From Candidatus Omnitrophota bacterium (GTDB taxonomy: Bacteria; Omnitrophota; Gorgyraeia; Duberdicusellales; 4484-171), in the NCBI GenBank assembly GCA_021735655.1, contig JAIPGM010000002.1, positions 1 to 64,000 on the forward strand: a stretch of DNA of 64,000 bases. The letters run 5' to 3'. The notes beneath the pieces were generated by a model. The model made no database searches. It was not told the origin of the DNA and worked only from the letters and a program-made list of their open reading frames with translations. The stretch's first letter is position 1; each line of letters starts with the position of its first letter. Shown in pieces: positions 3,822 through 63,460 of the stretch. The position numbers and the translations under genes are program-made.

Positions 3822-3855
3822 TAGTGAAAAGCTATATTACAGGAGGTGGTAAGCG

Positions 3856-4239
3856 ATGGAAAAGACATGGACATGCCAGGAGGATATTTTGTGCGGGGTT
3901 AATGAGCCAAAGGATAAAGCTAATCCTACAGACCTTGAGAAGAAACATATTCCTATAATAGAAGCACCGGACAAGGTTAAAAAGGATGAACTTTTTGAGA
4001 TTAAAATTGAGATCGGAAAGTTATTAGCCCACCCTAACGAACCGGCTCATTTTATAGAGTGGATCGAACTTTATTGTGGGCACACATTCTTAGGGAGAGC
4101 GTCTTTAAGCGGCGGTGCAAGCTATCCAACAGTGACTTTTCAGGTGAAACTAAGTCATGCTCACGGGCCGCTGAAAGCCTGGGGAAAATGTAATATACAT
4201 GGTTTGTGGGAAGGCCTGAAAACAATAACTGTAGAATAG
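3856..4239 (+). CDS. sor: Superoxide reductase (neelaredoxin-type, single-domain)
   Basis: Conserved SOR motifs EKKHIP, HPNEPAHFIEWIEL and CNIHGLWEG (His4-Cys iron site). Confidence 0.85.
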   Translation: MEKTWTCQEDILCGVNEPKDKANPTDLEKKHIPIIEAPDKVKKDELFEIKIEIGKLLAHPNEPAHFIEWIELYCGHTFLGRASLSGGASYPTVTFQVKLSHAHGPLKAWGKCNIHGLWEGLKTITVE

Positions 4240-4250
4240 GAGGTATCATA

Positions 4251-4439
4251 ATGAAAGCGATCGTAAATCAGGAAACATGTACAGGTTGTACTTTATGCGC
4301 TCAAGCCTGTCCGGATATCTTTGAAATGGATGGTGAAAAGGCAAAAGTTCTTGTTGACGTTGTAGCGAAAGATAAAGAAGAATGCAGTAAGAAGGCAGCC
4401 GATGAATGTCCGGTTACGGCCATATCTATAGAAGAATAA
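4251..4439 (+). CDS. Small single-cluster ferredoxin
   Basis: CTGCTLCAQACP ... CP cluster motif, 62 aa. GGAGG RBS before the ATG at 4251. The track ORF 4206 is an N-terminal over-extension. Confidence 0.75.
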   Translation: MKAIVNQETCTGCTLCAQACPDIFEMDGEKAKVLVDVVAKDKEECSKKAADECPVTAISIEE

Positions 4440-4455
4440 TGAAAGGAGGCGAGAG

Positions 4456-4881
4456 ATGGCGAAAATAACGAAAGAGAAACTGATTGAGCTTCTTAATAAG
4501 GACTTGGGTTTAGAGTATACCGCGTGTGTGCAGTATACCCAGCATCAAGGGGTCCTAAAAGGCGCGATGTATCAGAACATGCAGAAAGAGCTGGTTATCC
4601 ACGCCCAAGAAGAGCTCGCGCACGCGACAACGATTGCGGCTCAAATAGACTATTTGGGAGGCTTTCCGACCGTTGATATGCCGCTGCCTAAAACCTCTAA
4701 AGAAAACGAAACCATGCTGAAACAGGATCTAGAAGGGGAAAACGACGCTATTGCAAGGTATATAGTGAGGATAAAACAGGCTGAAGAACTGAATCTTTAT
4801 CACTTAGCCCAGCAGTTAAGAAATATCCTGGCTGTTGAGCAGGAACACGCTATGGATTTAGAGCAGGCCCTGGGTAAATAA
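4456..4881 (+). CDS. Ferritin-like diiron protein (Dps/rubrerythrin superfamily)
   Basis: Two E-x-x-H motifs (EELAH; EQEH) about 90 aa apart in a 141-aa helical protein. Confidence 0.55.
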   Translation: MAKITKEKLIELLNKDLGLEYTACVQYTQHQGVLKGAMYQNMQKELVIHAQEELAHATTIAAQIDYLGGFPTVDMPLPKTSKENETMLKQDLEGENDAIARYIVRIKQAEELNLYHLAQQLRNILAVEQEHAMDLEQALGK

Positions 4882-32598: not shown

Positions 32599-32958
32599 AT
32601 GATAAATATTTTACTTTATATTTTAATCGGCCTATTCGCGGGCGCGATAAGCGGTTTAATTGGAATAGGAGGGGGAATCATCATTGTTCCCGCCCTTATT
32701 TATCTCTTTAAGTTTTCTCAGCATGCAGCTCAAGGGACAACTTTGGCGATGTTAATACCGCCTATTGGCATACTGGCGGCTTTAGCGTATTATAAGCAGG
32801 GACACGTTAATTTTCCGGTGGCAGGATTTATATGTTTGGGATTTGTTATCGGCGGATTCTTAGGCGCGAAATTCGCGGTAGGATTTCCGGAAGTTGTGTT
32901 AAGAAAAATATTCGGAGCGTGTCTTTTGGGTATAGCGAGTTATATGATTATTAAATAA
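32599..32958 (+). CDS. TauE/SafE (TSUP) family 4-TM half-size membrane protein
   Basis: GAISGLIGIGGGIIIVPALIY motif typical of DUF81/TSUP. Confidence 0.65.
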   Translation: MINILLYILIGLFAGAISGLIGIGGGIIIVPALIYLFKFSQHAAQGTTLAMLIPPIGILAALAYYKQGHVNFPVAGFICLGFVIGGFLGAKFAVGFPEVVLRKIFGACLLGIASYMIIK

Positions 32959-33012
32959 TCGATAGGCGATGGGGTTCGCCGTTAACCGCCTCAACAGGCT
33001 GATAACTCCTAC
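32958..33012 (+). promoter_or_regulatory. Fluoride riboswitch (crcB RNA motif)
   Basis: ataGGCGATGGggTTCGCCgttAACCGCCtcaacaggCTGATAACTCCTAC matches the crcB-motif consensus, directly upstream of the crcB RBS. Confidence 0.85.
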
Positions 33013-33036
33013 TTAAATGAAAGGAGGGATTTGTCT

Positions 33037-57753: not shown

Positions 57754-59061
57754 TTGATGGATAAAAGAGCTCAAATAAAAAGTTTAGGTTTATTATCATT
57801 TTTTTTGTTTTTAAGTTTTAATTTATGCGCTCAAGATTTCCTTGATGAGCCGATATTTTCTCCGGTTGCCGATAAGGTCTCCCAATACCCCGCTTCTTCA
57901 ATTCTTTATAAACAGTACTTAGAAAATGGTAATCATTATCTAGATCAAGGTCTCTATCGTGAAGCAAAAGAACTATTCTGGAAGGCGATACATCTGTATC
58001 CTCAAAATCCCGATGCTTATATAAATTTAGGAACTGCTCATATGCGTCAAGAGGATCTCGACAGCGCTTTGAGAATTTTAAAAGATGCAGAAGGGCTTGT
58101 TAGTCAGGATTATCAGCAGATCGAAATTCTTTTTTATAATTTAGGAAAGTGTAATTTTTTAAAAGAGGATTACCATCAGGCAATCTTTTACCTTGAGAAA
58201 GCTTTGGCTGAGTTTTCTGACTTTGCCCAAGCTAGATATTATTTAGGAGTTAGCTATTATCGATTGGGCCAGAATGAAAAGGCTTTCGTGAATATATTTA
58301 TGGCTGCTGAGATGTTTGATAAAAATGGTGATCAGGCTACGAGCTTAGAGGTAAGACAATTTTTAAGAAATATTCAGGGTACTCAAAATATTGATCGAGT
58401 TTCTTTAGCCAAGAGTCTTTTTGGTGATGCTCAGGTAGCTTTAGCTAATCAAGAACTAAGTCGGGCCATTGTTTTAATGAAGGAGAGTATATTTTTAAAT
58501 CCCAATGATGCTAATGTCTACTATGAGCTGGCACTTATTTACTCGCGAGAAAATGCCTTCCATAATGCAATTATTTATTTGAATAAGGCAATTGAAGTTG
58601 ATCCTGGTTTTACTAAGGCTTACTTGGGCCTTAATCAAGCTTATCGCAAGGTAGAAAAATATGATTCAGCAGTTGAAATTCTCAAAGCAGCCGCAGACCT
58701 TGATAAGGAAAATCCTTTAATTTATTATAATATGGCTCTTGCTTCCATTGAGGGTCATGACTTTAATACCGCAAGAAGATATCTAACTGAAGCGGAATTG
58801 GGCGCTTTAGCTAACAAAGATGATCTTTTGCTTGAGAAGATAAACGTTGCCTATGGTTTGATTGAGCAATATAAGCAGGCAAAAACTAAGCCACCCTTCT
58901 TTCCTAAGAAAATCACGCGTAAACCGAGCGAGACTCTTTATCCTTATCATTCGCTACCAGGCAATTCTGGTAACTTTAGTGGTGGCTATTTTGTTGTCCA
59001 GCGTTCTACTGAGGATGAGCAAAAGAAGTCAAAAAGTCATCGGACAACCCTTGAATATTAA
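57754..59061 (+). CDS. Secreted TPR-repeat protein
   Basis: Signal peptide and more than 8 TPR-like repeats. Confidence 0.7.
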   Translation: MMDKRAQIKSLGLLSFFLFLSFNLCAQDFLDEPIFSPVADKVSQYPASSILYKQYLENGNHYLDQGLYREAKELFWKAIHLYPQNPDAYINLGTAHMRQEDLDSALRILKDAEGLVSQDYQQIEILFYNLGKCNFLKEDYHQAIFYLEKALAEFSDFAQARYYLGVSYYRLGQNEKAFVNIFMAAEMFDKNGDQATSLEVRQFLRNIQGTQNIDRVSLAKSLFGDAQVALANQELSRAIVLMKESIFLNPNDANVYYELALIYSRENAFHNAIIYLNKAIEVDPGFTKAYLGLNQAYRKVEKYDSAVEILKAAADLDKENPLIYYNMALASIEGHDFNTARRYLTEAELGALANKDDLLLEKINVAYGLIEQYKQAKTKPPFFPKKITRKPSETLYPYHSLPGNSGNFSGGYFVVQRSTEDEQKKSKSHRTTLEY

Positions 59062-59088: not shown

Positions 59089-59120
59089 TGAGTTGACAGA
59101 TATGATTTTGTAGATAGAAT
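59089..59120 (+). promoter_or_regulatory. sigma70-like promoter TTGACA-16-TAGAAT for tRNA-Glu
   Basis: ttgacagatatgattttgtagatagaat about 15 nt before the tRNA 5' end. Confidence 0.45.
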
Positions 59121-59135
59121 TATTATAATTTATTT

Positions 59136-59210
59136 GGCCCCATCGTCTAGTCCGGCCTAGGACACATGGTTCTCAGCCATGAGACACCGGTTCGAATCCG
59201 GTTGGGGCTA
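59136..59210 (+). tRNA. tRNA-Glu (anticodon CTC)
   Basis: Manual cloverleaf fold: acceptor GGCCCCA/TGGGGCT, D-arm GTCT-AGTCCGGCCTA-GGAC, anticodon arm CATGG-TTCTCAG-CCATG, T-arm ACCGG-TTCGAAT-CCGGT. Followed by a T-run. Confidence 0.8.
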
Positions 59211-59262
59211 CTGTTTTTATTTCTCCCTATTGAATCCCCCCCTGTAGTGGTATAATTTAACT

Positions 59263-59925
59263 ATGAGAAAAGGATTTACCCTAATCGAACTAATAGTGGT
59301 CATTGCAATTATTGCAATTTTAGCTGCCATTATTGCTCCTAATGCTTTTAAAGCTATTGAGAAGGCAAAGATTGCAAAAACTATAGCCGAATTAAGGGTT
59401 TTCAAAACTGCTGCACATTCTTTGTATTCTGATACTGGTCGATGGCCAGGCTCTGGCGGAATTGGACCTATTGCTCAGTGGGTTTATCTTGATAATGGAT
59501 TAATTTGGCCGAGAACCCCTGCTGGTTTAAATAGCAGCTTGTTTGATAATGATGATGGAGTAGGAAATACAATTTCTGGTTGGGACGGACCGTATCTTGA
59601 TCGCCGATCATCTAAATCCGCTTGGGGTGGAACTTATGCTATGTATAAACGTTACAATGGTTTTCCTCAAACTGGATCTAGTGCCGGCGATCTTACTCTT
59701 GTTATTACTAGCATTTGTTATGGGTCACTTAATTCAGTGCTATCTAACAGGAATTGCCCTTTGAGTGAAGAATTAGCGGAGATAATTAATGGTAAAATTG
59801 AAGGCGACAATGATTTACGTTTTGACCAATCAACCGCCGGAAATTTTAGAAAGTTCCTTTGGGCTAACTCGGGTGATACTTGGGAAGGTTTTTATCATTT
59901 CATGATTGGAGAAGACGTTTTATAG
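59263..59925 (+). CDS. Type IV pilin-like protein (prepilin N-terminal cleavage/methylation domain)
   Basis: MRKG|FTLIELIVVIAIIAILAAIIAPNAF with Glu+5. Confidence 0.8.
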   Translation: MRKGFTLIELIVVIAIIAILAAIIAPNAFKAIEKAKIAKTIAELRVFKTAAHSLYSDTGRWPGSGGIGPIAQWVYLDNGLIWPRTPAGLNSSLFDNDDGVGNTISGWDGPYLDRRSSKSAWGGTYAMYKRYNGFPQTGSSAGDLTLVITSICYGSLNSVLSNRNCPLSEELAEIINGKIEGDNDLRFDQSTAGNFRKFLWANSGDTWEGFYHFMIGEDVL

Positions 59926-59938
59926 GGGGAGGCATCCC

Positions 59939-60496
59939 ATGAAAAAATCATTCACTCTAATCGAACTTATAGTAGTCATCGCTATTATAGCTATCCTTGC
60001 CGCAATTATTGCCCCGAATGCTTTTCGGGCTATTGAGAAGGCGAAGGTGGCTCAGGTGGTATCAGATTTAAAGACATTTAAAACAGCTGCTGTAGGTTAT
60101 TATGGGGATACTGGGCAGTGGCCACCAGATGGGGTTAGTTGGTTTACTGATGAAGAGCTGCAGTTTTTCATTACTGGAGTAGGGCAACCAGCAGGCTGGG
60201 ATGGACCCTATTTAGAAAGTTGGCCAAATCCACCTTGGCATTGTGAATTTGTCTATGGTGCTGATACGGTTCATGAAAATTATGATTGGGACCACTGGGT
60301 GGGGTGGTCTTATTGGGGTGTAGTGCCTGCGAATACTGATACTTGCGGTGCAAGTATTTCATGCGTTCCTCAAAAGTCAGCGACAAAGATAGATGTTAGT
60401 TTAGATGACGGTAACCCTTCTTCGGGCAGGGTTCGTTGGGTCAGCTCATATGCCGGTGGTTTCATGAATGCAATTATCATCGAAGGAGGACAGTAA
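59939..60496 (+). CDS. Type IV pilin-like protein, paralog 2
   Basis: MKKS|FTLIELIVVIAIIAILAAIIAPNAFRAIEKAK. GGGGGAGG RBS before the ATG at 59939. Confidence 0.8.
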   Translation: MKKSFTLIELIVVIAIIAILAAIIAPNAFRAIEKAKVAQVVSDLKTFKTAAVGYYGDTGQWPPDGVSWFTDEELQFFITGVGQPAGWDGPYLESWPNPPWHCEFVYGADTVHENYDWDHWVGWSYWGVVPANTDTCGASISCVPQKSATKIDVSLDDGNPSSGRVRWVSSYAGGFMNAIIIEGGQ

Positions 60497-60531
60497 AGGC
60501 CTGATTTGCATTGATAAGAGAAATAACTACT

Positions 60532-61134
60532 ATGAAAAAATCATTTACTCTCATTGAACTAATTGTAGTCATAGCTATCATTGCTATCCTTGCTGCAATC
60601 ATTGCTCCCAATGCCTTTCGTGCCATTGAGAAAGCTAAAATTACAAAAACCATTGCTGATCTAAAAGCCATAAAAACTGCCATTGGGGCTATGTATGCTG
60701 ATACTGGAAAATTTCCCAGCGGCTGTATTGCCTTTACCGTCAATGACCCTGAAGTTAATTTAGATACGGCACAGGCAGGGTTGGTATCCGAACCTCCGGT
60801 TGGAATTTTTACTGGCGCTACCGGCGGCACTTGTGAGTGGACCCAAGCTAATGTCAATTCTTGGGATGGTCCTTACCTTGAAAGCGGGCAAGTAAAGGAT
60901 GTTTGGCATTCAGCATATCATTATGACCCTGATTATTATTATTGCATAAATGGATATTTAAGCCCAGCTGGAGACGGGCCAATAACTAATTGCGGTGACG
61001 CTCCGGTAGCTCAAACTTGTCTAGAGGTATGCGGCGGCGCCTTTAACTGTGGCTTTCCAGTAATACAATCATTTGGCCCTGACAAAAGCGGTTATGGTTG
61101 TGATGATATTATAGTAAAAATGACACTCAATTAG
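60532..61134 (+). CDS. Type IV pilin-like protein, paralog 3
   Basis: Same N-terminal 35 aa as paralog 2, Cys-containing variable C-terminus. ATG at 60532. Confidence 0.8.
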   Translation: MKKSFTLIELIVVIAIIAILAAIIAPNAFRAIEKAKITKTIADLKAIKTAIGAMYADTGKFPSGCIAFTVNDPEVNLDTAQAGLVSEPPVGIFTGATGGTCEWTQANVNSWDGPYLESGQVKDVWHSAYHYDPDYYYCINGYLSPAGDGPITNCGDAPVAQTCLEVCGGAFNCGFPVIQSFGPDKSGYGCDDIIVKMTLN

Positions 61135-61280
61135 TGAAAAATAAATAGATAATTAACCACTTTTCCAATCCCAATCAACCCAAAACCGACTATTTCCTTT
61201 CCGTTTGACCACTTTTTACCAAGATGGTTGACAGTTTGGTTGACATCTTACGCTTAACTACTTGAGCCATAATAGTTTTA

Positions 61281-61324
61281 ATAGGACGCATGGTTCTTAG
61301 TCATGAGACACCGGTTCGAACTCG
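61281..61324 (+). other. Degenerate partial copy of the tRNA-Glu gene (D-stem 3' half through T-loop, about 39/44 identical)
   Basis: ataggacgcatggttcttagtcatgagacaccggttcgaactcg versus taggacacatggttctcagccatgagacaccggttcgaatccg at 59158-59201. The matching 3' acceptor end ggttggggcta reappears at 61453-61463 after a 128-bp GC-rich insert. Confidence 0.5.
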
Positions 61325-61619
61325 CAATTATTTAGGTTTTTACCTCTCGAGTCCATGAGTACGCCGAAGGCGTACGAATGAATCCTTCCGCCTGCGGACT
61401 AAAGTCCTCGGCGGAATCCCGCCGAATCCGCCAAAGGCAGATGCAGGCGGGAGGTTGGGGCTATTTGTTTTCATTTTTTCTTCAGAATTTTAGTAAATCC
61501 CATACGAATTAGTTTTCTATCTTTAAGGATGAGGCCAGGCTATATTTTGAGGTGGCATAAGAGTCAGCTGATGATATAATATGCTTAGTTCTAGAAGCAG
61601 TACATAAAGGGAGTAAAAG

Positions 61620-62543
61620 ATGAAAAAAGTAATCGTTGCGACAACAATACAAAACCCTACAGAAGCTATTGAAAAATTTGATAGTTTGAAGGAATGGACG
61701 CTTATTGTAGTAGGAGACTTAAAAACTCCAGAAAGTTATAAATTAGAAAATGGTATGTATTTCTCTCCCCAGGAGCAAGAAAAATATGATCAAGAGCTTT
61801 CTGATTTAATTGGCTGGAATACCCACGCGAGGAGAAATTTCGGCCATCTATTAGCAAAAGACATGGGTGCGGATGTTATTGCATGTGTGGATGATGACAA
61901 TATTCCGTATAATACATGGGGAAAAGACATTTTTATAGGAAAAGTTGTAGAGGCTAATTACTATGAATCTGACCTCGAGGCTTTTGACCCTGTAGGCGCT
62001 ACTAATCACCCTTACTTATGGCATAGAGGTTTTCCTATTCAGCTAATAAATAAAAGGGATTATAGTAAAAAAATAAAAAAGAAAATAAAAGTAGATATCC
62101 AAGCAGATTTTTGGAACGGTGATCCGGATATAGATGCTATATGCCGAATGATTTATAAATCGGAGGTTAGCTTCGAAGAACAGTATTTTCCTATAGCGTC
62201 TAACAAGCCGTCTCCTTTTAATTCGCAAAATACATTTATTGCGAAAGATGTCCTTCCATATTGTTTTTTTCTTCCACATATTACGCCACTTGGAAGACAG
62301 AGTGATATAGGGATCTCTTATCACTTAGCATCGCTGGGATATAATGTTATATATTGCAAGCCGTCTGTTTATCAGGCTAGAAACACACACAACTTAACTA
62401 TAGATATGGAGGATGAGTTTAAGGGATATATGAGCAATATAGATATCGTAAGAGCTATAGGCAATGGAACGTATAAGAAAGAAGACTTCTGGCCTGAACA
62501 GACATGCGCAGCATATGAGGTTTATCAGAGGAGATTTAAGTGA
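61620..62543 (+). CDS. Putative GT75/STELLO-like (DUF288-like) glycosyltransferase
   Basis: VIVATTIQNPTEAIEKF ... WTLIVVGDLKTP and a DDD motif (ACVDDDNIPY). AT-rich gene. Confidence 0.4.
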   Translation: MKKVIVATTIQNPTEAIEKFDSLKEWTLIVVGDLKTPESYKLENGMYFSPQEQEKYDQELSDLIGWNTHARRNFGHLLAKDMGADVIACVDDDNIPYNTWGKDIFIGKVVEANYYESDLEAFDPVGATNHPYLWHRGFPIQLINKRDYSKKIKKKIKVDIQADFWNGDPDIDAICRMIYKSEVSFEEQYFPIASNKPSPFNSQNTFIAKDVLPYCFFLPHITPLGRQSDIGISYHLASLGYNVIYCKPSVYQARNTHNLTIDMEDEFKGYMSNIDIVRAIGNGTYKKEDFWPEQTCAAYEVYQRRFK

Positions 62544-63460
62544 AGAATAGCAACGATACAAAAATCAATAATTCACTTTCCGGCATACTTTGTTGTATAA
62601 ATTTCAACGAAGTGCACTACGACAATATAGAATTTTTAAAAGATTTGTATAGCAATTTTGTTGATGTAGTTTTTTACGGGCCAGAGCGGAAGCAGGGGTT
62701 CGAAGTAAATCAATTATGCCACCATCGTGGCTATTTTAGTTATGCAGTGATATTAGACGCAATTAAAAAATTTCCAGATTACAATGGATATATATTTGTT
62801 AATGATGATTGTATCATGAATATATGGCAATTCATAAATAAAGACAAGACTAAAGTATGGTTGCAGCCGTTTCATTCTAAAGTTAATCGCCATGATTATA
62901 AAGAAAGCACATGGTTTTGGCTGAATGAGCCATGCGGTATCTCTGCTTATGGTAAAGCTTTCTTGCAAATCCCGCGTAGATACCGTGAAAGGCTTAAATC
63001 GTCATTTGGGTCTGAAGATGCTGTGATTTGTGGACCTGCTGATTGTTTTTATTTGCCCAAAAGACGGATAAATGATTTTGCTTCCTTGTTTGATATATAT
63101 TTTTCCAACAGGGTGTTTACTGAAATAGCGGTGCCTACTGGCCTATACGCAATCGAAGATAAGGCACAAATTACAGTTTTCAAGGGTCATGACAGAGTGA
63201 CATTTCCTTTGTCATTTATTCCTTATGACCTAAAAGCAAAAATATTCTACAGAGGAGAGTTGGACTTATACCATCCTTTAAAATTGTCTAATTCTAAAAT
63301 GAGATCTATGGTTAAAAATATGTTTAATGTATATCTTTTTCAAAGAAATAAATTTTTTTCAAAAATTTTAAGATTATGCGATTTGCTACGTCCTTTTATT
63401 TGGTTTTGGGCATATATGTATATGATTCAGGGGAGATTTTTGAGAAAGATTCGTTATTGA
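62540..63460 (+). CDS. Hypothetical GT-A-like protein (possible DUF5672-like)
   Basis: YIFVNDDC motif. Translationally coupled to the previous gene. AT-rich. Confidence 0.3.
   Translation: MKNSNDTKINNSLSGILCCINFNEVHYDNIEFLKDLYSNFVDVVFYGPERKQGFEVNQLCHHRGYFSYAVILDAIKKFPDYNGYIFVNDDCIMNIWQFINKDKTKVWLQPFHSKVNRHDYKESTWFWLNEPCGISAYGKAFLQIPRRYRERLKSSFGSEDAVICGPADCFYLPKRRINDFASLFDIYFSNRVFTEIAVPTGLYAIEDKAQITVFKGHDRVTFPLSFIPYDLKAKIFYRGELDLYHPLKLSNSKMRSMVKNMFNVYLFQRNKFFSKILRLCDLLRPFIWFWAYMYMIQGRFLRKIRY

Follow-up and report, generated by a model that had tools for sequence, protein, structure and literature searches.

A displaced tRNA-Glu fragment with two hairpin modules in an Omnitrophota genome, a probable relic of a GIY-YIG nuclease cassette

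Introduction

Phages T4 and T6 encode SegB, a free-standing GIY-YIG homing endonuclease whose gene lies in a tRNA cluster and whose recognition site contains the T-psi-C stem-loop motif (PMC2330249). Through break repair, SegB drives recombination-dependent duplication of tRNA-containing segments (PMC13096335). In this work, we analyzed a tRNA-Glu-derived sequence at positions 61282-61479 (+) of a 64-kb stretch of DNA from a Candidatus Omnitrophota bacterium (contig JAIPGM010000002.1, positions 1 to 64,000; this whole stretch is referred to as the window). The sequence is best explained as what remains of an older tRNA-Glu gene, namely its 3' part, displaced and non-functional, with two hairpin modules, X and E, in the T arm, and the locus as a relic of a nuclease-type selfish cassette in tRNA-Glu and not of an integrase island. 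To this explanation as a whole we assign a probability of about 0.6.

The Omnitrophota locus resembles the SegB system in several respects: in its relatives a GIY-YIG gene directly adjoins a tRNA gene, and the locus shows partial tRNA duplications, syntenic presence and absence, and a redundant tRNA copy disrupted exactly in the T loop/T stem. It differs in lying on a bacterial chromosome instead of in a phage, in a protein of only 86 aa that consists of the catalytic domain and is nearer to UPF0213 than to the Seg proteins, and in a cassette that is nested in a split tRNA gene, carries a complete replacement tRNA and is accompanied by the dyad E. Adjacency of the GIY-YIG gene was found in all nine related clusters, while the window contains no nuclease gene and is at most a relic of this arrangement, not a member of it. 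By analogy, we place the locus among free-standing homing-endonuclease cassettes at tRNA genes, with a conserved double-hairpin motif not described before; our literature searches found no description of this cassette/double-hairpin arrangement. The related loci would thereby extend the association between SegB and tRNA genes from phages to bacterial chromosomes. Their nuclease gene, located inside the gene that is disrupted and travelling with a working copy of it, is reminiscent of cleave-and-rescue designs.

Results and Discussion

The window contains the 3' part of an older tRNA-Glu gene

The only tRNA gene found in the window by ARAGORN and Rfam was the intact tRNA-Glu(CTC) at 59136-59210 (+; 56.9 bits with Rfam), located upstream of a cluster of pilin genes as the first-pass annotation of this DNA had stated. 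Downstream of these genes lies the old copy. Its first segment, TAGGACGCATGGTTCTTAGTCATGAGACACCGGTTCGAA at 61282-61320 (+), corresponds to linear positions 23-61 of the tRNA and is identical to the intact gene at 36 of 39 positions. From TAGGAC to GGTTCGAA, it covers the 3' strand of the D stem, the anticodon arm, the variable region, the 5' strand of the T stem and TTCGAA, and one of its three differences from the intact tRNA is the anticodon CTT. A 44-nt match of about 39/44 had been claimed here; its tRNA-Glu origin and its anticodon CTT were borne out, but the solid core is limited to the 39 nt, the other five bases matching poorly. The approximately 6 nt that follow 61320 (CTCGCA) may be a decayed 3' strand of the T stem. 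The second segment, GGTTGGGGCTA at 61453-61463 (+), matches linear positions 65-75 exactly (11/11) and consists of the T-stem 3' GGT, the acceptor 3' strand TGGGGCT and the discriminator A; it has two exact occurrences in the 64 kb, both at tRNA 3' ends. As had also been reported, the exact acceptor end is followed by a run of T residues, the T-rich tract TTTGTTTTCATTTTTT (61464-61479, +), which resembles the 3' flank of the intact tRNA. Together with a second copy of positions 59-64 (see below), the old copy contains positions 23-61 and 65-75 and the T-rich 3' flank, and its T arm is split by 132 nt.

It is hardly conceivable that this similarity is due to chance or to an assembly artefact. 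Local alignment of the remnant with the intact tRNA scored 33, far above 1000 dinucleotide shuffles (mean 8.3, maximum 14), and none of the 255 other tiles of the window exceeded 14 against tRNA-Glu; the E-value of the same comparison with blastn-short was 4e-9. Moreover, an independent Logan assembly (L001) matched the window identically over 481 nt, and homologous architecture was found in many independent metagenome-assembled genomes and metagenomes.

The intervening sequence is composed of two modules

The sequence that interrupts the old copy had been described as a 128-bp GC-rich insert with long-range complementarity between tccgcctgc and gcaggcgga. Both the strong fold and this complementarity are present within 61321-61452, but the insert is 132 nt long and composite: X (61321-61385) has 46% GC and E (61386-61452) has 64% GC. 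Since L029 (and also L024) carries X running into GGTTGGGGCTA without E, X and E are separable modules.

Module X comprises an AT-rich stretch, ATTTAGGTTTTTACCTCT, and a hairpin (together 61321-61379, +), and shows conservation in two other Omnitrophota, with 77% identity to L029 and 67% to L024. In all three sequences the hairpin, CAT-GA-GTACGCC-GAA-GGCGTAC-GA-ATG (61354-61380, +), is 100% paired, with four pairs changed on both sides. It is followed by GAATCC (61380-61385, +), the second copy of the T-loop/T-stem positions 59-64, which in L029 runs directly into GGTTGGGGCTA. The location of X in the T loop of the old tRNA copy is common to three lineages. Identity of X between lineages is 65-77%, as compared with 33-46% in the flanks beyond the remnant and 64% in the GIY-YIG genes of those lineages at the DNA level. 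An 8-codon micro-ORF (open reading frame) over the hairpin (ATG...TGA in the window and L029) was considered and dropped, since L024 has ACG and there is no Shine-Dalgarno sequence.

L029 is the closest relative of the window by its tRNA (92%) and by the upstream tetratricopeptide repeat (TPR) gene. After its intact tRNA-Glu and terminator, it contains a second remnant homologous to window 61309-61385. Comparison of the junctions showed GGTGAATGAATCC joined directly to GGTTGGGGCTA in L029, versus ACGAATGAATCC, then the 67 nt of E, then GGTTGGGGCTA in the window. E at positions 64/65 is thus without counterpart in L029 (GAATCC^GGTTGGGG), a precise presence/absence with no target duplication. 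In both L029 and L024 the remnant, consisting of X and the tRNA 3' end, is located 45-270 nt after the tRNA-Glu and is accompanied neither by E nor by pilin genes, and the equivalent of positions 23-58 is decayed beyond recognition. In L024, the region between the tRNA terminator and X (4376-4530) also contains an anticodon-loop remnant, AGCTTCTCA, and additional GC-rich hairpins with UUCG loops (GCCCTTCGGGC and GGCCTTCGGCC); the old tRNA piece in this lineage has gathered hairpin insertions. An analogous T-loop split was found in the distant L027, which has a tRNA-Glu(TTC): GGGATTCGAAC, about 140 nt of GC-rich sequence, and then GAATCCCCGTGGGGACGCCA.

Related loci carry a GIY-YIG gene between tRNA-Glu fragments and an intact tRNA-Glu

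When metagenomes were scanned with a 20-mer taken from the insert, L010 was the single true match; this 20-mer spans the variable hairpin of E, and the low match count is no measure of the rarity of E. A further candidate from the same scan, L011, was a chance match. Genome contigs were scanned with a 29-mer common to the tRNA and the remnant, with no match, and with a 19-mer of E, which gave only chance matches in coding DNA of Gemmataceae and Pyrinomonadaceae. L010 contains a 67-nt homologue of window 61386-61452 (89% identical, E-value 2e-18), cleanly placed between positions 13 and 14 of a 22-nt tRNA-Glu 5' fragment that lies behind a promoter. Downstream of this fragment are an 86-aa GIY-YIG ORF and then an intact tRNA-Glu(CTC). 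Nine clusters of homologues of the L010 GIY-YIG protein were examined (P0121, P0122, P0124, P0126, P0129, P0136, P0138, P0143, and P0146), and the E module was present in 9/9. In these related Omnitrophota, the order is promoter, tRNA-Glu positions 1-13, E, tRNA positions 14-22, a short spacer, the GIY-YIG ORF, about 5 nt, and the intact tRNA-Glu; in some lineages the part with positions 14-22 is replaced by a different stretch.

Several loci showed variations of this organization. L021 contains the fragment-E-fragment unit twice, which suggests a segmental duplication at the locus; the tandem [tRNA 1-13]-E-[14-22] units (3887-3975 and 4262-4350 in L021, and also present in L022 and L023) flank the GIY-YIG ORF, and the second E copy of L021 is a variant with a fully symmetric beta stem. 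In L027 there is no tRNA 1-13 fragment and E abuts the stop codon of an upstream ORF of 885 aa; immediately ahead of E, the 3' end of this ORF (3850-3900) contains two hairpins that resemble those of E (TCCGCC-GGA-GGCGGA and TCCGCC-CTT-GGCGGA). Directly upstream of the tRNA fragment/E module of L020 (3800-3880) there are degenerate tandem repeats of the CTGAC(T/A)TCTGA type.

Many of the related loci are syntenic with the window, having TrxR, LPG-synthase, NYN, TPR or CorA genes upstream and HisF, PRA-CH and a chorismate-binding gene downstream, and therefore represent the same chromosomal tRNA-Glu site. In L021, L030, and L029 the order is TPR, module, GIY-YIG, tRNA. In the window, the TPR gene ends at 59061 and is followed directly by a promoter and the tRNA-Glu, with no GIY-YIG/E module between them (an "empty" 5' side). 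Occupied and empty alleles thus exist at the same site, in lineages so distant that loss and gain are indistinguishable.

The 5' fragments of the relatives end at position 22, with GGCC before the spacer in L010, L017, L021, and L029 and GGTC, which differs by 1 nt, in L014; decay at this position in L030 (GGTT versus GGTC in the tRNA) makes the end of that fragment less certain. The remnant in the window begins exactly at position 23 (TAGGAC), where the 5' fragments of the relatives end. Taken together, the 5' fragments and the remnant thus correspond to one tRNA-Glu gene divided at 22/23 into two complementary halves. In the D loop, each 5' fragment has the variant found in the tRNA of its own lineage, a match that would indicate either local origin or ongoing gene conversion. 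No 3' remnant was found in L014, L017, L020, L021, and L030.

These comparisons bear on the origin of the pilin genes. At tRNA-targeted islands, tyrosine integrases duplicate the 3' part of the tRNA gene as attL and attR, and the sublocations used by tRNA-targeting integrases are the anticodon loop, the T loop and the acceptor 3' end. A decayed att-site duplication bracketing the pilin genes was one of two options put forward in the first-pass annotation. According to it, the pilin genes would have arrived by integration into the 3' half of tRNA-Glu, the remnant would be a displaced attR copy that later received an unrelated insertion, and the integrase would have been lost. Indeed, the intact tRNA and the downstream repeat of its 3' part bracket these accessory genes in direct orientation, and X is flanked by an imperfect T-loop repeat (TTCGAA... 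and GAATGAATCC), a pattern resembling that left in a T loop by crossing over or by duplication of a core. However, searches of ORFs and Pfam domains in 59211-61281 revealed three pilin ORFs and no integrase or recombinase, in agreement with what had been stated before. L029 and L024, which lack pilin genes, keep the remnant, and no pilin homologues were detected by tblastn in any related locus. The GC content of the pilin genes (42%) is close to the window mean (41%). The left boundary of the repeat, position 23 in the D arm, lies outside the three sublocations and coincides with the boundary of the GIY-YIG cassette, a GIY-YIG nuclease being the enzyme present in the relatives. In addition, the repeat is broken by X and E and is not contiguous to the tRNA 3' end, and a hairpin with compensatory changes such as that of X is unexpected of a decaying att arm. 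We consider an integrase-type island quite unlikely. The other option of that annotation, an insertion into a second tRNA copy, fits what was found, an old tRNA copy with insertions.

The nuclease of the related cassettes is a stand-alone protein of 86 aa that consists of a bare catalytic domain (PF01541). It weakly matches the N-termini of group I intron endonucleases, and the nearest solved structures are those of UPF0213 proteins (1zg2/1ywl), although the match in PDB is weak (E-value about 0.02). UPF0213/YhbQ (SLX1-like) proteins have the same size and domain content (PF01541 only). SLX1-type enzymes are structure-specific, which by analogy would fit a hairpin or cruciform partner such as E. 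We know of no UPF0213 protein with a link to tRNA genes or to a palindromic element dedicated to it, and none emerged from a search of the literature. The nuclease ORFs of L010, L014, L017, and L029 have no recognisable Shine-Dalgarno sequence, unlike the neighbouring genes, and end 4-7 nt before the tRNA; they are therefore probably co-transcribed with it from the promoter that precedes the 5' fragment. The annotations of P0126 and P0129 place the start of the nuclease ORF within E; these N-terminal extensions were discarded, being not conserved and interrupted by stop codons in L021.

Structure and conservation of module E

E is a 67-nt dyad of two hairpins with 7-bp stems, inserted in the window between positions 64 and 65 of the old tRNA copy. 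From an alignment of 11 distinct copies, hairpin alpha was defined as TTCCGCC-TGC-GGAC(TAAA)GTCC-TC-GGCGGAA (61386-61416, +) and hairpin beta, an inverted copy of the alpha unit, as TCCCGCC-GA-ATCCGCC(AAA)GGCAGAT-GCA-GGCGGGA (61417-61452, +). Both follow the general pattern TCCCGCC-TGC-[variable hairpin]-TC-GGCGGGA, with the second in inverted orientation. In this tandem-hairpin model 96.7% of cells are paired and 7 pairs are changed on both sides, and 0/500 shuffles equalled it. The four-way-junction fold, which is the minimum-energy structure of the window sequence and contains the tccgcctgc/gcaggcgga stem highlighted in the first-pass annotation, was rejected as the conserved structure, its pairs 7-67 and 29-42 failing in 6-7 of the 11 copies. 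Tandem hairpins were preferred because the failing positions of the junction become compensatory pairs in that model. Both conformers are near in energy in fully symmetric variants, including that of the window.

The distal hairpins of E are swapped wholesale among lineages (GGAC/GTCC, GCAC/GTGC, ACCCAC/GTGGGT), and its 7-bp closing stems are near-invariant even where nuclease identity falls to 56%; E is more conserved than the neighbouring 86-aa nuclease. Such near-invariant dyad stems suggest recognition by a protein, possibly the nuclease itself. A covariance model of E (R1) gave the window copy 85.5 bits, among the top scores, and this copy is therefore intact. Matches to R1 in 180 kb (the window and about 115 kb of related loci) occurred solely at tRNA-Glu fragments, with one copy in the window, one per related locus and two in L021, and no further copies of E or X were found in the 64 kb. 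Other lineages have E at another site, GTCT^AG (positions 13/14), where the insertion is precise and again shows no target duplication. Its precise presence or absence at the two sites shows that E behaves as a discrete unit.

This behavior raises the question of whether E and X are small palindromic mobile elements that landed in a dead tRNA copy and have no link to the GIY-YIG gene. Short GC-rich palindromic units of this kind include doublets of repetitive extragenic palindromes (REP/REPIN), Rickettsia palindromic elements (RPE) and yeast mitochondrial GC clusters, and miniature inverted-repeat transposable elements (MITE) could be considered as well. Like REPINs and GC clusters, E consists of two inverted hairpin units (alpha and the inverted beta), is GC-rich in an AT-rich genome, is tolerated there in RNA-gene sequence, and is precisely present or absent at two sites with no target duplication. 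A dispersed repeat would in addition be present in many copies, but R1 found no copy elsewhere in the window or in the related loci, and E is tied to tRNA-Glu fragments as a single copy per locus. No viral-contig, plasmid, phage or Rfam match was obtained for E and X, and no gene for a REP-associated tyrosine transposase (RAYT), HUH enzyme or other transposase was found in E or its immediately adjacent ORFs in any of the loci examined. The closing stems being more conserved than the adjacent protein gene is a further difference from REP/REPIN sequences. We therefore regard unlinked palindromic elements as an unlikely source of the two modules.

A functional RNA, be it an intron-containing, split or tRNA-like noncoding RNA or a selected structured terminator or stabiliser, was also considered. 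In its favor, the intervening 132 nt fold with -60.8 kcal/mol (z = -5.8 versus shuffles), both modules show conservation and covariation, and neighbouring intergenic DNA is less conserved than X. In the RNAalifold structure, the 5' half of X is base-paired with AAUCC...GGGG, which belongs to the old 3' end and lies directly ahead of the U tract. The stretch from the pilin operon to the next promoter (61552-61580) contains no other predicted terminator. Nevertheless, neither ARAGORN nor the Rfam tRNA model called a tRNA in 61250-61480, even at E-values of up to 10. The acceptor 5' and D-stem 5' strands are lacking, homology starting at position 23 and the sequence upstream being unpaired with TGGGGCT, and the T stem is broken. 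Because the 5' half is missing, an intron-containing or functional tRNA is excluded. The decay of positions 23-58 in L029 and L024 speaks in the same direction, and a simple terminator scan did not flag the tract at 61464-61479. Taken as an alternative to the cassette, a functional RNA is improbable. A terminator or masking role would be compatible with the relic of a cassette and is no true rival of it: the pairing between X and the 3' end could mask the orphan acceptor strand or aid termination of the tRNA/pilin transcript, for which the tract TTTGTTTTCATTTTTT is possibly the termination tract.

Searches against Rfam 15 at E-value thresholds of 5-10, covering window 61100-61620, L029 480-1300, and L027 3850-4700, returned only tRNA and noise and gave the insert no family. 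Matches to CRISPR-DR11 and Thr-leader at permissive thresholds were dismissed as noise. Group I introns of bacterial tRNA genes are structured, often contain GIY-YIG endonuclease genes, are located in the anticodon loop and have at least about 200 nt (PMC3984707). The modules described here are likewise structured inserts in tRNA genes, but X and E have only 59 and 67 nt, lie in the T arm (or, in the relatives, the D loop) of dead fragments and are not matched by any Rfam family, in contrast to the Intron_gpI matches of introns. The remnant in this window is an inactive relic. It belongs neither to the functional tRNAs nor to any known RNA family, and it is neither the att scar of an integrase nor a repeat of the dispersed type.

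Proposed origin of the locus

In the explanation that we favor, a cassette formed by the GIY-YIG nuclease gene and a replacement tRNA-Glu would have been inserted into the resident tRNA-Glu gene at the 22/23 boundary, probably through repair of a nuclease-induced break, as for free-standing homing endonucleases, with homing as the means of spreading. The cassette would provide a working tRNA while splitting the old gene, and the tRNA-Glu at 59136-59210 would be this replacement copy. E at 13/14 and the T-loop module X would represent insertions into old, redundant pieces; in the window, X and E would disrupt exactly the T-loop/T-stem motif that SegB-type enzymes read. We infer that this genome subsequently lost both the nuclease gene and the 5' fragment, plausibly by recombination between the repeated 5' segments, which would leave the clean promoter-tRNA junction of the window. 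Recombination between the 53-nt repeats could in turn have cleanly removed the 3' remnant in L014, L017, L020, L021, and L030. E and X may persist by interrupting the duplicated tRNA sequence, of which 22 nt are divided into 13 + 9 and 53 nt into shorter pieces, and thereby stabilising the locus against deletion, and/or by masking the orphan tRNA strand. In the window, three pilin genes separate the new tRNA from the old 3' fragment.

Several observations weigh against this explanation. Tblastn detected no GIY-YIG gene or pseudogene in the 64-kb window, which also contains no 5' tRNA fragment, so that the former presence of both has to be assumed. E lies at 64/65 here and at 13/14 in every nuclease-bearing locus, and its constant association with GIY-YIG genes is biased by sampling, the related loci having been retrieved via the nuclease gene. 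These relatives are distant, the proteins of neighbouring genes being about 40-65% identical in amino-acid sequence. The fragments have other boundaries in L024 (about 33-35), L020 (18), and L027 (about 24-41), and a single event at 22/23 is therefore insufficient for all lineages. The 86-aa protein has no DNA-binding domain, and a nuclease aimed at tRNA-Glu sequence would also cut the replacement tRNA. Finally, structural support comes from three X sequences and 11 distinct E sequences, and the evidence from G-U pairs on the strand of E is contradictory, with one case for each strand.

A more tentative proposal, which we hold to be possible but rather doubtful, is that E, X and the 86-aa GIY-YIG protein form an undescribed selfish tRNA-gene replacement element of Omnitrophota. 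In such an element the nuclease would work on E, as cruciform DNA or as RNA, and not on a linear site, the tRNA-Glu would serve as the rescue copy, and E would move as a discrete unit. The latter would explain its precise insertion both at 13/14 in the nuclease-bearing loci and at 64/65 in the window. E combines dyad symmetry with 7-bp stems that hardly vary and distal hairpins that covary freely, and is a candidate partner for a domain-only GIY-YIG enzyme. For genome annotation, orphan tRNA-Glu fragments with GC-rich hairpins in Omnitrophota would be read as footprints of a GIY-YIG/tRNA-Glu cassette and not as att scars or broken tRNA genes. In the window, the inactive relic possibly has a role in ending the tRNA/pilin transcript.

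Pilin genes and other features of the window

The intact tRNA-Glu is preceded by a sigma-70-like promoter, TTGACA-16-TAGAAT (59093-59120, +; 11/12 match). Between this tRNA and the old 3' fragment there are three tandem genes for type IV pilins or pseudopilins (59263-59925, 59939-60496, and 60532-61134, all +; Pfam N_methyl and T2SSG), which are either context or cargo. The interval between the last pilin gene and the remnant contains two pairs of direct repeats: TT(A/G)ACCACTTTT at 61153-61164 and 61205-61216, 52 nt apart, and TGGTTGACA at 61225-61233 and 61237-61245, 12 nt apart. A sequence downstream of the tRNA in L030, CCGACCACTTTTCCGACCAG, resembles these repeats.

Downstream of the remnant, window 61620-63460 encodes a 307-aa protein with no Pfam match and then a STELLO-like glycosyltransferase. 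Homologues of the 307-aa protein number more than 4800, and in other genomes the family occurs in variable polysaccharide loci. The 307-aa gene was tried as a synteny anchor and found useless, since homologues with 66-73% identity lie in unrelated polysaccharide loci. Elsewhere in the window, a fluoride riboswitch (crcB motif) was identified at 32956-33018 (+), with 62.7 bits versus a gathering score of 34.

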